DNA of 64,000 nucleotides from Armatimonadota bacterium (GCA_046292385.1 JBKBRF010000007.1:32001-96000), one strand, 5' to 3'; positions 35,803-39,563 are shown, counted from the stretch's first letter. Notes: generated by a model from the letters alone, not told the origin. Numbers and translations: made by a program.

Positions 35803-36738
35803 CTACTCGCGGCGGCGCATGCGGCGGAAGTTGCGGAGGCGGTCCGGGTGGATCTCGCCGCGGTCCACGGCGGTCCGGACGGCGCACTGCTGCTCCCCGG
35901 TGTGGGTGCAGTTGCGGAAGCGGCAGCGCGCGGCGAGGGCGGCGATCTCCGGGAAGGTGTCCGCCACCGACTCGCCGTCGTCTTCCAGCAGGCCGAGCGT
36001 GCGGATCCCGGGCGTATCGGCGAGATAGGTACCCTCGCCGACCGGATAGAGCCGGCTGCTGGTGGTGGTGTGCCGGCCCTTATGGCTCCACTCACTCACC
36101 TTGGCGACGCGGGCGCCGAGTCCGGGATAGAGCGCGTTGACCAGGCTGCTCTTGCCCACGCCGGACTTGCCGCTCAAGACGGCGATCCGACCGCGGACCG
36201 CCTCCCGCAGGGCGTCTATCCCGCTACCGTTCACCGTGCTGGTGAAGTAGACCCGGTCGCCCGCGCTCTGGAGCGGCGCCGTCTCCTCCTGGAGCAGCGC
36301 CGGGTCGGCGAGGTCGTACTTGTTCACCACGACCAGCGGCTCCACGCCGCCGCGGCGGGCCATGCCGATGAACCGCTCCGCCAGGCGCCGCTGAAACGGC
36401 GGCTCGGCGGCGGCCTGGACGATCAGGAGGAGGTCGACGTTCGCCGCCAGGAGCTGCTCCACGCCCGCGAAGCCGGGGCGCGCCAGCTCGCTGCGGCGCG
36501 GCTGCACCGCTTCGATCACGCCTCCTCCGTCCGGCAGGCGCAGCAGCTCGACGCGGTCGCCGATCACTACCGGGCTCGACGCTCGCCGCCCTCCCAGCCG
36601 CAGGCGCCCGCGCAGGCCGCAGTCGAGCACCTCGCCCGCCGCCTCTACCTGGAAGCTGGCGCCCTCGTGACCCACCACCAGCCCGGTCTCCCGGGGCTCG
36701 TGGCCCGCTTGTCCTCCGCTCGCGCTGCGCTTCGACAC
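35803..36738 (-). CDS. rsgA: Ribosome small subunit-dependent GTPase A
   Basis: NKYD, GKSGVGKSSL, GRHTTT, DTPG, CRFRNCTH..E..C. Confidence 0.97.
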   Translation of the reverse strand: MSKRSASGGQAGHEPRETGLVVGHEGASFQVEAAGEVLDCGLRGRLRLGGRRASSPVVIGDRVELLRLPDGGGVIEAVQPRRSELARPGFAGVEQLLAANVDLLLIVQAAAEPPFQRRLAERFIGMARRGGVEPLVVVNKYDLADPALLQEETAPLQSAGDRVYFTSTVNGSGIDALREAVRGRIAVLSGKSGVGKSSLVNALYPGLGARVAKVSEWSHKGRHTTTSSRLYPVGEGTYLADTPGIRTLGLLEDDGESVADTFPEIAALAARCRFRNCTHTGEQQCAVRTAVDRGEIHPDRLRNFRRMRRRE

Positions 36739-36965
36739 TCGCTCGTCTCCCGCACCCTCTATCGTCGTGGAGAAGGGCGCTGCTAAACGGCGGCTCCCGG
36801 GTAGGATCTCTTGAGCAGAGAGCCGGGGCAGGACGATAGGGACGGCGAAAAGCGGGAACCCTGAGGACAGGATCGGAGATGAGGATGCCGACGCGAATAC
36901 GAGGAAAGGCCGCCGGCCGCAGTGAGCTGGCCCGGGACGCGCACTTCCGCACCGGCGGAGGTGCG

Positions 36966-37061
36966 ATGGGCGGAAGCCGGAAGCTGCAGGCGAAGCGGCG
37001 GCGCCGGGCGGATCGGCTGGAGGAGCAGCGCGCCGCCCGCGAGCGGGAGCAGGCCGAGTAG
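36966..37061 (+). CDS. 31-aa basic/charged microprotein
   Basis: Strong SD GGAGGT; MGGSRKLQAKRRRRADRLEEQRAAREREQAE. Confidence 0.55.
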   Translation: MGGSRKLQAKRRRRADRLEEQRAAREREQAE

Positions 37062-37147
37062 GCGTGACACGAAAGCCCGCTCGCGGGCGGGAACCTCCGG
37101 TTGAAGATTCGGGTCTTTATAGATAGCTCTCCCCGAGCACCCCTTCG

Positions 37148-37597
37148 ATGCGACGACGCACCCCGTCAATCTGGCTCGCCCTCTACCTGGCCGTTCTGCT
37201 CCCGCTCCTGGGAGCGGGTGGGCCGGCGGCATGGGCGTGCGGCGAGCAGTCCGGCTGCTCCGGCCATGCTGCGGGATGCGACGGACCGGGACAGGCGTGC
37301 GGCACCGAGTGCGGCCACGGCGCCTCCGCGAAGGCGGACTGCTGCGCCGCGGGCCACTCCGAGAGTCCGTCGGTCTCCGCAGGCGACTGCGTCTGCGTGG
37401 TCGAATCGGCTCCGGCGCCCGATCTCTACCGGGTGGTCGTCGCGGCCGAGGTGCCGATCGCGGCGCCTCCCAGCGTTCCCCTGCTCCTGAGCGCCCCGCG
37501 CGCGATCCGGGTGCGCCAGCGCAGCACGGCCCCCGCCGCGGTGCGGGGACCCCCACTCTCTCCTCTCGGCTCGCGCGGACCTCCGCGCCTCGGATAA
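37148..37597 (+). CDS. Signal-peptide, Cys/His-rich protein ending in tandem RGPP motifs (DUF2946-like putative arrest/leader peptide)
   Basis: N-terminal hydrophobic signal; 9 Cys and 3 His; Pro-rich linker; ...VRGPPLSPLGSRGPPRLG-stop. Confidence 0.7.
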   Translation: MRRRTPSIWLALYLAVLLPLLGAGGPAAWACGEQSGCSGHAAGCDGPGQACGTECGHGASAKADCCAAGHSESPSVSAGDCVCVVESAPAPDLYRVVVAAEVPIAAPPSVPLLLSAPRAIRVRQRSTAPAAVRGPPLSPLGSRGPPRLG

Positions 37598-37756
37598 CTG
37601 CGTCTCCCACGGGAGACCCCTGACGGCCGCCGGCCTGGAGCCCCTCCGGCTCCGGAGCTCCGCGCGGGGTCCGGCTTCGGACCACCCGACTCGTCAACTT
37701 GCAGTTATCCGGCCCCGATGGGCCATTGCCCCCGCACGTGGGGCAGAGGAGAAGTC

Positions 37757-38254
37757 ATGTCTCGTTTCATTCAGATCGCCCTGGCCGTCTCCGGCCTCTC
37801 CGTCTTCGCCTTCGGTCTCGCGGGCGCGGCTCCCAAGGCAGCCGCCCCGGCCGCGAAGCAGCCAGCCTGCTGCGCGCAGAAGAAGGAGTGCTGTGCGGAG
37901 AAGAAGGCGTGTTGCACCACCGCCAAGCCGGCCGCGTGCTGTGCCGAGAAGAAGGCGTGCTGCGACAAGAAGGACGCCGCCTGCTGCGCCAAGACCGCGG
38001 CGGCCGCGGCTCCGGCCTGCTGCGTGGAAAAGAAGGCCTGCTGCGACAAGAAGGCCGCCTGCTGTGATCAGCACCACGCCGCGGCGGACTGCTGCGTGAA
38101 GGGCGCCGAGTGCTGCGCGAAGGGTGCCGAGTGCTGCACCACCGCGAAGAAGGCCGCCGCGATGGACTGCTGCGCCGCCCCGGCCAAGGCCGTTTCGGTG
38201 AAGAAGGCGGCTGCGGTGAAGAAGGCCGCCATGCCGTGCTGCGAAGAGCGCTAA
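37757..38254 (+). CDS. Exported Cys-Cys repeat protein (metallothionein-like)
   Basis: SD AGAGGAG; signal peptide; 14 CC pairs in Ala/Lys-rich repeats of about 7-8 aa. Confidence 0.8.
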   Translation: MSRFIQIALAVSGLSVFAFGLAGAAPKAAAPAAKQPACCAQKKECCAEKKACCTTAKPAACCAEKKACCDKKDAACCAKTAAAAAPACCVEKKACCDKKAACCDQHHAAADCCVKGAECCAKGAECCTTAKKAAAMDCCAAPAKAVSVKKAAAVKKAAMPCCEER

Positions 38255-38277
38255 GCGGCTGAGCGATCGCTCGTGAG

Positions 38278-38312
38278 CGAGGGAGGGGTCTCCGGATCCC
38301 TCCCTCGTTTCT
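38278..38312 (+). terminator. Terminator after the CC-repeat gene
   Basis: CGAGGGAGGG...CCCTCCCTCG then TTTCT. Confidence 0.65.
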
Positions 38313-38343
38313 GTCGCGGCCGGAAGAGACCGCTCTACCTTCG

Positions 38344-38373
38344 TTGCCATCCGGGCGCCGCCGCCGCTACAAT
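38344..38373 (+). promoter_or_regulatory. Sigma70-type promoter for the OsmC-family gene
   Basis: TTGCCA-18 nt-TACAAT. Confidence 0.6.
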
Positions 38374-38403
38374 CCCGGGTAGAGCCTCATTCAGGATGCG
38401 CAG

Positions 38404-38844
38404 ATGACACAGGTAGTCGTGATCTCGGATCGGAACTTCCGGCAGGAGATCTGGGCGGGGGACCACACCCTCGTCGCGGACGAGCCCCGGGAGCTGGGCG
38501 GCGACGATACCGGCGCCACCCCGTACGAGCTGCTGCTCGCCGCGCTCGGCGCCTGCACCTCCATCACGCTGCTGATGTACGCGCGCCGGAAGGGGTGGGA
38601 GCTCCAGGCGGTGGAGATCCGCCTCCGGCACAACCGCGTCCACGCGAAAGACTGCGCGGAGTGCGAGGAGAAAGACAGCTACCTGGACCGGATCGAGAAA
38701 GAAATTGCGGTCTCCGGCAATCTCTCCCCCGAACAGGTGGAGCGGCTGGCGGAGATTGCGGAGAAGTGCCCGGTGAACCGCACGCTGCGTGCGTCGATCG
38801 TAACGAAGCAAGAAATCCGCCTGGCCGCCGCGGGCTCCGCCTGA
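38404..38844 (+). CDS. OsmC/YhfA family protein
   Basis: ADEP..GGDDTG.TPYELLLAALGACT, KCPVNRTL. Confidence 0.93.
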   Translation: MTQVVVISDRNFRQEIWAGDHTLVADEPRELGGDDTGATPYELLLAALGACTSITLLMYARRKGWELQAVEIRLRHNRVHAKDCAECEEKDSYLDRIEKEIAVSGNLSPEQVERLAEIAEKCPVNRTLRASIVTKQEIRLAAAGSA

Positions 38845-38921
38845 AGGTCCGGTCGCCAGGCTCCCGTTCCCCTCTCTACTGCGGCTCTGCCCTCCCGGGC
38901 AGTAGACCGAGGAGTGTCCCG

Positions 38922-39563
38922 ATGATCAAGTCCCGAATGCGTTCCTATGCCCTCGCCGGCGCCGCGGTGCTGGCCGCGACCGGAATCGCCCGCGCCGCCG
39001 TCGACGCGGAGCCGATCCCCGCGGACTACCTGCAGCAGCTCGCGCCGATCGCGCTGCAGCTCTTCCAGGACCAGTTCCCCAACCCGCCCGTAAAGGTGAC
39101 CGCCAACCTGGAGAAGGTGAGCGGCTATCACGTGATGCAGCAGGTCGGCGTGGTGGTGATGCCGGACAAGAACCTCACCGCCGACGCCGTGGCGAAGAGC
39201 GCGGAGAAGGAAGCGCCCGCCGCCATCGTGGTGGCGCGGGGCCTGACCTTCAAGAATAAAGACAAGGCGGTCCCCGCGGAGCGGATCGCCAACGCCGACC
39301 TGGGCCAGGCGAAGCTGCCGGTCTACTTCTTCGCTGTGAAGGGAGAGGGCGAGGAGCGCTCGCTCCTGATCTACTCCAAGGACGCGGAGCCGATCGCGAC
39401 CGCTCCGATGAAGAAGCGCGAGACGGCCGGCACCGATCAGTTCGAGCTGAAGCTCGCCAACGTGGACCTGGAAAAGAAGACCGCCGAGCTGAAGGTCGGC
39501 GTTGGCGGCACCCACGAGACGACGCTGAACCTGGAAGTGCAGAAGGTCGAGCCGCTGCAGTAG
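38922..39563 (+). CDS. Hypothetical secreted protein
   Basis: SD GAGGAG; signal peptide; host-like codon usage. Confidence 0.75.
   Translation: MIKSRMRSYALAGAAVLAATGIARAAVDAEPIPADYLQQLAPIALQLFQDQFPNPPVKVTANLEKVSGYHVMQQVGVVVMPDKNLTADAVAKSAEKEAPAAIVVARGLTFKNKDKAVPAERIANADLGQAKLPVYFFAVKGEGEERSLLIYSKDAEPIATAPMKKRETAGTDQFELKLANVDLEKKTAELKVGVGGTHETTLNLEVQKVEPLQ

Follow-up and report, generated by a model that had tools for sequence, protein, structure and literature searches.

What does a short, cysteine-rich reading frame ending in a ribosome-arrest motif do when it lies directly upstream of a gene for an exported Cys-Cys repeat protein? The question is raised by a locus in an Armatimonadota genome. 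A first-pass annotation of the window (the whole stretch of 64,000 nucleotides that was analyzed) had read this pair of genes, both on the plus strand, as a metal sensor based on ribosome stalling that controls a periplasmic metallothionein-like chelator. The reading has three parts: whether the leader controls the next gene, whether metal is the signal, and in which direction the signal would switch the target.

The two-gene unit

The leader ORF (37148 to 37597) encodes 149 residues, arranged as an export signal, a Cys/His region, a Pro-rich linker and two RGPP motifs. The predicted Sec signal, residues 1–30 (37148 to 37237), is a candidate called by hydropathy and pattern. Residues 7–25 are hydrophobic (Kyte-Doolittle 11-mers, maximum 2.6), the relatives are laid out alike, and cleavage would probably occur immediately N-terminal to Cys31. 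There are nine Cys (residues 31, 37, 44, 51, 55, 65, 66, 81 and 83, forming CxxxC, CC and CxC patterns) and three His. The Cys region comprises residues 31–83 (37238 to 37396), and Cys31, Cys65 and Cys81 are invariant in an alignment of nine sequences. RGPP 1 begins at residue 133 (37544 to 37555). RGPP 2, the terminal motif that is conserved in the family, begins at residue 143 (37574 to 37585), with only three residues between it and the stop. Counting back from RGPP 2, the last Cys pair is at 60 and 62 residues, and from RGPP 1 at 50 and 52. All of these elements, the signal in the sense of hydropathy and pattern, are present in the sequence as the first-pass annotation had described them, including the closeness of the second motif to the stop. 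Recent DNA duplication is an unlikely source of the double motif, since three of the four codons differ between the two copies, all synonymously.

The leader (P0001) has no match in Pfam or NCBIfam, finds only itself in a word-index protein search, and has no loci in the metagenome scans. When the leader profile was used in the word-index search, three proteins were matched, P0001 among them. Matches in the ESM Atlas at 0.95 are unnamed Bacteroidota proteins and serve as leads only.

The second gene (37757 to 38254) encodes a secreted Ala/Lys-rich protein of 165 residues, a candidate periplasmic metal chelator. The 14 CC pairs attributed to it earlier were confirmed: its 28 Cys (17% of the residues) are all in CC pairs, mostly 7 residues apart, and its only aromatics are three Phe, all in the signal region. 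An upstream ATG at 37718 was rejected as the start codon, as it has no Shine-Dalgarno (SD) sequence while the signal and the SD fit 37757. Metallothioneins are characterized by high Cys content, few aromatics and small size, and hold several d10 metal ions in thiolate clusters. The target is like them in being small, Cys-rich and Lys/Ala-rich, in having no aromatics in its mature part and in having no confident fold (AlphaFold model, pLDDT 48). It is unlike them in its export signal and in having all of its Cys in CC pairs at a spacing of about 7 residues. Judged by sequence, it resembles a metallothionein in composition only. No match to the target (P0002) was found in Pfam, NCBIfam or PDB, a genome search with the metallothionein family PF00131 gave no match at the locus, and a word-index protein search found nothing. 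The ESM Atlas matches to the target, below 0.9, are unnamed clusters, mostly from Acidobacteriota, and the structure matches all have a TM below 0.45; both are leads only.

A single promoter-like site was found when the region from 36000 to 39500 was scanned. It lies at 38344 to 38373, outside the unit, and would serve osmC, as had been proposed. We rejected osmC as a member of the unit because it has this site of its own and was not seen beside the units of the relatives. The same scan showed no promoter-like site 5′ of the leader and none in the spacer between leader and target, the place where the first-pass annotation had named an independent promoter as evidence against its own reading. 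Leader and target are probably carried on one mRNA. In one metatranscriptome, three contigs are 90–99% alike over parts of the region; since none of them bridges leader and target, this metatranscriptome is uninformative on co-transcription. The terminator said to close the unit is partly upheld: a strong hairpin is present (38275 to 38310, z -4.0), but it has an imperfect U-tract and was missed by the terminator scan.

The window leader has neither an SD nor a clear promoter in 37100 to 37147. Two related leaders (L024:972 and L025:133) begin 7 nt past a -10-like hexamer, which suggests that these two may be translated from leaderless mRNAs. Farther upstream, 36879 to 37061 is a basic ORF of 60 residues with a good SD, divergent from rsgA and followed by a hairpin at 37075 to 37091; it has no Pfam or NCBIfam match. 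Elsewhere in the genome, a second secreted CC-rich protein (G000:C2:304263-304746, L011) has five pairs, an internal duplication and no leader upstream.

Relatives of the pair and the predicted RNA switch

An alignment of the target, whose seed contained three of the six other genomes found, matched 7 genomes among 401 of the phylum, counting the present one. In each of the six others, the gene directly upstream, 82–143 nt away, encodes a protein that starts with a hydrophobic stretch, continues with a Cys region and has RAPP or RGPP at its C terminus. The leader profile matched 27 of the 401 genomes. We read 23 non-seed leader loci (four further non-seed matches came without DNA), and every one of these leaders ends in R[AGS]PP no more than 5 residues from the stop. 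Two of the 23 precede further CC-rich secreted proteins, so that nine leader-CC pairs are found in the phylum (the window, six via the target and two via the leader), and about half, by eye only, precede membrane-fusion or outer-membrane efflux genes. The homologue search that had been suggested as a check thus supports co-conservation of the RGPP tail, the Cys residues and the gene order, in six of six genomes reached via the target and in the two more reached via the leader. The variety of genes downstream of the profile-matched leaders points to one leader family with several targets.

Three of the six non-self matches in one search (G023, G038 and G002) were not CC-rich ORFs and were rejected. 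A DNA pattern for the CC spacing gave 120 stretches, nearly all unrelated; six passed a filter for signal and CC pairs, and one of them (L113) is a clear relative. The metagenome scan with the target gave four loci, one with a CC-rich ORF lacking an upstream leader and three with no CC ORF at the match.

The distance between Cys and motif is restricted. A Cys is present 60–69 residues ahead of the terminal Arg in 33 of 34 leaders, a count that is partly circular for 23 of the 34, as the profile holds that Cys and the tail. The pairs found via the target and the non-RAPP leaders described below are independent of that profile. The nearer 10-residue windows contain a Cys in 2–7 of the 34 leaders each and the window from -80 to -71 in five, and a second Cys cluster occurs at -90 to -81 in 31. 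At our locus the spacing fits RGPP 2 (-60/-62) and not RGPP 1 (-50/-52). About 60 residues is the chain length needed to pass the ribosome tunnel and the translocon. A Cys some 60 residues from the stall, enough to clear the translocon, therefore favors sensing on the periplasmic side.

The spacer between leader and target had been described as hairpin-rich and 159 nt long. The length is correct, and the predicted fold of the segment 37540–37780 is more stable than those of 199 among 200 shuffled sequences (z -3.2); a search of the region against Rfam gave sub-threshold hits only. The predicted fold contains an inner domain (37592 to 37710) closed by a perfect 10-bp helix (37592–37601 with 37701–37710) that includes the leader stop codon, and a GC hairpin (37727 to 37745) directly 5′ of the target SD. 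Hairpins of different sequence are placed alike in three same-family relatives (L016–L018). The SD region itself (37746 to 37755) is computed to be sequestered in the ribosome-free fold, where it would pair, with probability 0.75–1.0, with an anti-SD strand in the leader coding sequence between the two RGPP motifs (37555 to 37565).

We assigned the downstream ATG by eye for 25 of the 34 leaders, some assignments possibly being wrong, and dropped the other nine. The 30 nt beneath a ribosome at the terminal motif were then removed, the footprint of a stalled ribosome being -13/+17. The energy needed to open the ribosome-binding site (RBS) fell by a mean of 4.1 kcal/mol, and by at least 2 in 18 of the 25 leaders, whereas removal of three neighboring 30-nt windows gave mean drops of 0.21, 0.32 and 0.07 (at least 2 in 2, 1 and 2 of 25). 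Because C-rich Pro codons might pair with any SD, leaders and RBSs were crossed as a control, leaving out the window and one near-duplicate. The native leader/RBS duplexes reached -13.3 kcal/mol compared with -10.3 for the crossed ones, and 0 of 20,000 permutations were as good (23 leaders), although the leaders are mutually related, so that these statistics and those of the RBS test overstate significance. If the RBS of the next gene is opened by a ribosome at the motif, a stall should turn the target on at the level of translation. The arrest-type reading of the leader is supported, and so, by computation across the leaders, is an RNA switch aligned with the stall site.

The window leader is not one of the 18 (its drop is 0.8 kcal/mol). 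Opening of its RBS is computed to cost 9.3 kcal/mol in free RNA. A ribosome stalled at RGPP 1, where it would cover the anti-SD, lowers the computed cost to 5.2, and a queue behind RGPP 2 lowers it to 5.3; when RGPP 2 is occupied by a lone ribosome, the cost is 10.0. Nor does this anti-SD do better with its own RBS than in crosses, 57% of the crossed pairs being as good. The strand stops exactly where the 5′ edge of an RGPP 2 ribosome would lie, so that the helix might still be blocked by a real ribosome in this position. Two other double-motif leaders (L014 and L024) were amenable to the analysis, and both show the drop at the terminal motif.

A second R[AG]PP occurs in five of the 34 leaders (at -10, -10, -10, -11 and -14), RPPP at -11 occurs in four more, and 20 of the 34 have a PP beginning between -13 and -7. 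Among the nine leader-CC pairs the double motif is complete in two, takes the form RPPP in three and is absent in four. With this distribution, the double motif is an elaboration on an upstream di-proline found family-wide, and is not a requirement. The first-pass annotation was right that the motif is doubled, but overstated the weight of this, given how few leaders and pairs have it in full and that RAPP/RGPP leaders of metal genes are already published. Six-frame translation of the genome, which is GC-rich, yields 23 cases of tandem R[AG]PP, most of them off-frame when judged by eye. A crude filter, hydrophobic start plus motif near the stop, was passed at similar rates by R-forms (9/1,321) and A-forms (16/1,685). 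We judge the feature to be real because of its conservation, not because of motif counts.

Similar targets occur in other phyla. The target profile matched 12 of 301 genomes in a set with a Planctomycetota centre and 6 of 301 in a set with a Terriglobia centre. A leader with signal and Cys is encoded directly upstream in six of the former (L147, L149, L150 and L155–L157) and in five of the latter, Acidobacteriota, set (L161 and L163–L166); the other seven genomes either lack a leader, encode a CC protein of another kind, have a fusion or were matched spuriously. None of these 11 leaders ends in R[AGS]PP. Their tails are YL[RK]xCV[FL]xI-stop in Acidobacteriota (four, and one looser), H[LV]xxCVWxC-stop in Planctomycetota (three), and three others, two of them Pro-rich. 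A Cys lies 60–68 residues before the stop in all ten non-RAPP leaders analyzed, one near-duplicate having been dropped. The tail codons often carry a computed anti-SD. When the leader was shortened by its last 30 or 60 nt, the RBS opened by at least 2 kcal/mol in 6 and 5 of 10, and three shifted the opposite way. One of the ten leaders heads a CusA/CzcA pump. Going by sequence and computed folds, we consider these tails candidate new arrest motifs; stop-dependent arrest peptides are known, and the tails found here are absent from the passages covered of the source describing them (PMC10987492). Cross-phylum homology of such low-complexity CC proteins is uncertain, and their likeness may be due to convergence.

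Several other leaders of this genome were noted. A second double-motif leader (RAPP x7 RAPP; G000:C8:21494-22602, minus strand; L014:2995-4103) lies before a gene for a secreted product that has two TGA codons in frame. With TGA read as Sec, the product shows a resemblance, below the cut-off, to MerP and the UxxU metal-binding selenoprotein family, and a relative of this gene in G087 has one TGA there. A RAPP leader of the same family (G000:C3:192766-193990, L012), about 10 kb from a P1B ATPase, precedes a secreted Cys protein that matches MerB weakly (19.3 bits). A RAPP-ending leader with a single Cys (G000:C4:8534-9935, L013) lies 352 nt before a carbonic anhydrase gene and shows no RBS effect. 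A CruR-type leader (G000:C70:7222-7584, L015), with CxxC at -48/-45 and a weak DUF2946 score, has the largest RBS drop among the leaders of the genome.

Known arrest leaders, the signal and its direction

The class to which the leader belongs is already known from CruR, CutF and the RAPP/RGPP uORFs, which are compared here on the published sections covered. CutF, of the Rhodobacter capsulatus cutFOG operon, is like our leader in its Cys motifs and its Pro-rich C-terminal stall site, and has a Sec signal to which the predicted signal of our leader would correspond by hydropathy and pattern (10.1101/2022.11.11.516240; 10.1101/2025.02.05.636593). As here, its next RBS is hidden in RNA structure and a stall is predicted to turn the next gene on (10.1101/2022.11.11.516240). 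The leader passes the four operational filters of that paper, with 149 residues (below 150), PP at 145–146 (in the last 15 residues) and a same-strand gene 159 nt on (below 1,000). RNA that hides the SD and is opened by a stalled ribosome is found here by computation, the window needing the ribosome at RGPP 1. The differences are PPP, four Cys and a multicopper oxidase target in CutF, against RGPP twice, nine Cys and a Cys-Cys repeat target here. The published survey comprises 5,334 CutF-like proteins and 29 clusters, and a Cys-Cys repeat class of neighbor is not named in the sections of the paper covered (10.1101/2022.11.11.516240).

RAPP/RGPP uORFs are defined as encoding fewer than 300 residues with a localization signal and a C-terminal motif, ahead of a same-strand gene (PMC12992588; PMC10987492). 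Our leader is of this kind, with RGPP as its motif, and the motif is conserved in its homologues. A further mark of the class is that arrest of the ribosome at the motif depends on the Arg. Cys/His leaders before metal genes are included in the class and common there, RGPP gives the most robust arrest, and seven of seven C-terminal RAPP/RGPP leaders tested arrested (PMC12992588, parts covered). The words "metallothionein", "tandem" and "cysteine-rich" have no hits in the main text of PMC12992588 and are absent from the supplements searched. As only the most C-terminal di-proline motif was kept in PMC10987492, doubled motifs were not examined in the part covered. In the literature searched, outside which most subscription journals lie, there was no description of the doubled motif or of the Cys-Cys target, and "periplasmic metallothionein" returned 0 papers.

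CruR (Bp2923 of Bordetella pertussis) resembles the leader in being the first gene, with an export signal (a predicted one in our leader), Cys residues and a RAPP-type motif three residues from the end, in the length of the spacer (162 nt) and in having a conserved Cys-to-motif spacing. That spacing is 45 residues from a CxxC, however, and our leader has no CxxC and a spacing of 60–62 or 50–52. CruR acts via Rho, copper relieves its RAPP arrest and turns its target, a TonB-dependent transporter, off, and it works without its signal (PMC9426467, parts covered). The first-pass annotation had also likened the leader to DUF2946 leaders. No match to DUF2946 (PF11162, threshold 23.7 bits) was found for P0001 at E up to 10, at this locus in a genome-wide search, or for five family relatives; only the separate C70 leader scores, with 14.8 bits. 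With no profile match, no CxxC and a spacing other than about 45, the assignment to the DUF2946 type fails, the RGPP near the C terminus being the one feature that agrees with it.

The reading we prefer is a CutF-like, metal-responsive translational switch acting on the Cys-Cys target, and we put its probability at about 0.4. Its parts are individually stronger: we consider it very likely that an arrest leader controls the next gene, likely that metal turns the target on, and probable that metal is the signal.

Four of the nine same-phylum pairs have genes for metal efflux or detoxification no more than about 3 kb away. In G005 a Cd-family P1B ATPase, ArsR and a His-rich gene are directly upstream, a CopA-like ATPase and a CsoR-type repressor are near the pair in G004, and a CDF transporter and ArsM are near it in G333 and G087, respectively. 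No metal genes were found among the neighbors scanned of the other five pairs (G003, G006, G355, G144 and the window). This genome contains two P1B ATPases over the cut-off and two CDF genes in 7.04 Mb, from which the chance of such proximity is roughly estimated at less than 1% per locus. In addition, CC repeats are fused C-terminally to an HMA domain in P0005 and N-terminally to a Cu/Zn superoxide dismutase in G695 (L185:5995-6630). From the neighbors at four of nine loci and these two fusions we infer metal sensing, and the efflux-type neighbors favor induction by metal, the CutF direction.

The same stalling switch might respond to periplasmic thiol chemistry or export capacity. The Cys domain would then report oxidant stress or the formation of disulfides, with the Cys-Cys protein serving to buffer thiols or as a structural protein rich in disulfides. 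The genome has a VKOR-family gene and is therefore likely to support oxidative folding; DsbB was not found with PF02600 in this 98%-complete genome. The gene after the CC gene encodes a redoxin in G087 and, judged by eye, in G004, RAPP/RGPP uORFs also precede DsbA and thioredoxin genes in the published sections covered, and the signal-to-motif length of about 110–120 is within the range of Sec-monitoring peptides. The gene that adjoins the unit, osmC, would fit such a role, but it is separated from the unit by the boundary evidence given above. Since the HMA and superoxide dismutase fusions and the efflux neighbors point to metal, and a plain Sec monitor would not be expected to keep its Cys at a fixed distance from the stall, we regard a thiol or export signal as unlikely, if still the best of the alternatives.

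Metal could also act in the CruR direction. RGPP arrest would keep the target on by default, and metal would fold the Cys domain, free the chain and turn the target off, so that the Cys-Cys protein would scavenge or store scarce metal. CruR, a tested RAPP leader, works in this way (PMC9426467, parts covered), and RGPP arrest is described, in the sections covered, as strong, constitutive and EF-P-resistant. FeoB lies directly downstream of one of the ten non-RAPP leaders, in a planctomycete. The neighbors, however, are mostly efflux or detoxification genes (P1B ATPases, CDF, CusA/CzcA, ArsM), the efflux-type genes headed by the other family leaders argue the same way, and the Cys-to-motif distance is 60–69 residues instead of 45. 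We consider repression by metal distinctly unlikely.

It is quite improbable that the main output is transcriptional, with ribosome release letting Rho terminate in the long spacer, as in CruR, and the anti-SD being secondary. The genome has two Rho genes (G000:C29:38525 and C83:4764), and the spacer, close to that of CruR in length, contains 63 C and 52 G. Yet it is almost wholly paired in the computed fold, RNA of this kind is a poor loading site for Rho, and the family-wide register of the anti-SD points to control of translation. Least probable of all is the absence of regulation, i.e., two co-transcribed secreted Cys-rich proteins with a neutral RGPP: the motif alone is insufficient for arrest, but RGPP and RAPP are 3- to 4-fold rarer than expected in the long ORFs of this genome (RGPP 8 observed, 25 expected; RAPP 12 and 48; 3,753 heuristically called ORFs of at least 200 residues, in which the Ala controls are not depleted, AGPP 56 and 40, AAPP 129 and 115), whereas the motif ends all the non-seed members read, with RBS occlusion in register.

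A proposed mechanism and its meaning

For the metal-induced translational switch that we prefer, the following sequence of events may be envisaged. The leader would be exported co-translationally, and its ribosome would pause at RGPP, as the published behavior of the motif suggests. Once the ribosome had reached the terminal motif, about 60 residues would separate the active site from the last Cys pair and the Cys domain could sample the periplasm. When metal is lacking, the Cys domain would fold or form disulfides, the pause would be released, and the anti-SD, as computed, would close over the target RBS. In excess soft metal (Cu, Zn, Cd or Hg) the pause would persist, the anti-SD would stay under the ribosome and the Cys-Cys protein would be made and secreted, and would then presumably bind the metal.

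In the window, the anti-SD follows RGPP 1, so the ribosome that opens the RBS would be either one at RGPP 1 or one queued 10 codons behind that at RGPP 2; ten codons are about one ribosome length. As the Cys spacing fits the second motif and the anti-SD the first, a two-ribosome switch is conceivable, though doubtful. The sensing ribosome would wait at RGPP 2, and a second one, caught at RGPP 1, would open the target, giving a threshold response. It is unlikely that all parts of a wider proposal hold together, namely an exported metallothionein-like family in at least three phyla, a modular leader (signal, Cys sensor, 60–68-residue ruler and swappable stall tail) and a two-ribosome threshold switch at this locus.

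Regulation has been tested in only two members of the leader class, and the outcomes were opposite; the way in which a ligand alters the pull on the stalled chain is named as an open question in the part covered of PMC12992588. The present unit would offer a compact test case: it comprises two genes, its anti-SD is defined, and the distance from Cys to stall suggests that sensing takes place outside the membrane. Should the target bind metal, it would be a metallothionein-like protein that is exported, of a kind without description in the literature searched, and the occurrence of the same target under non-RAPP tails provides a short list of candidate new arrest motifs.
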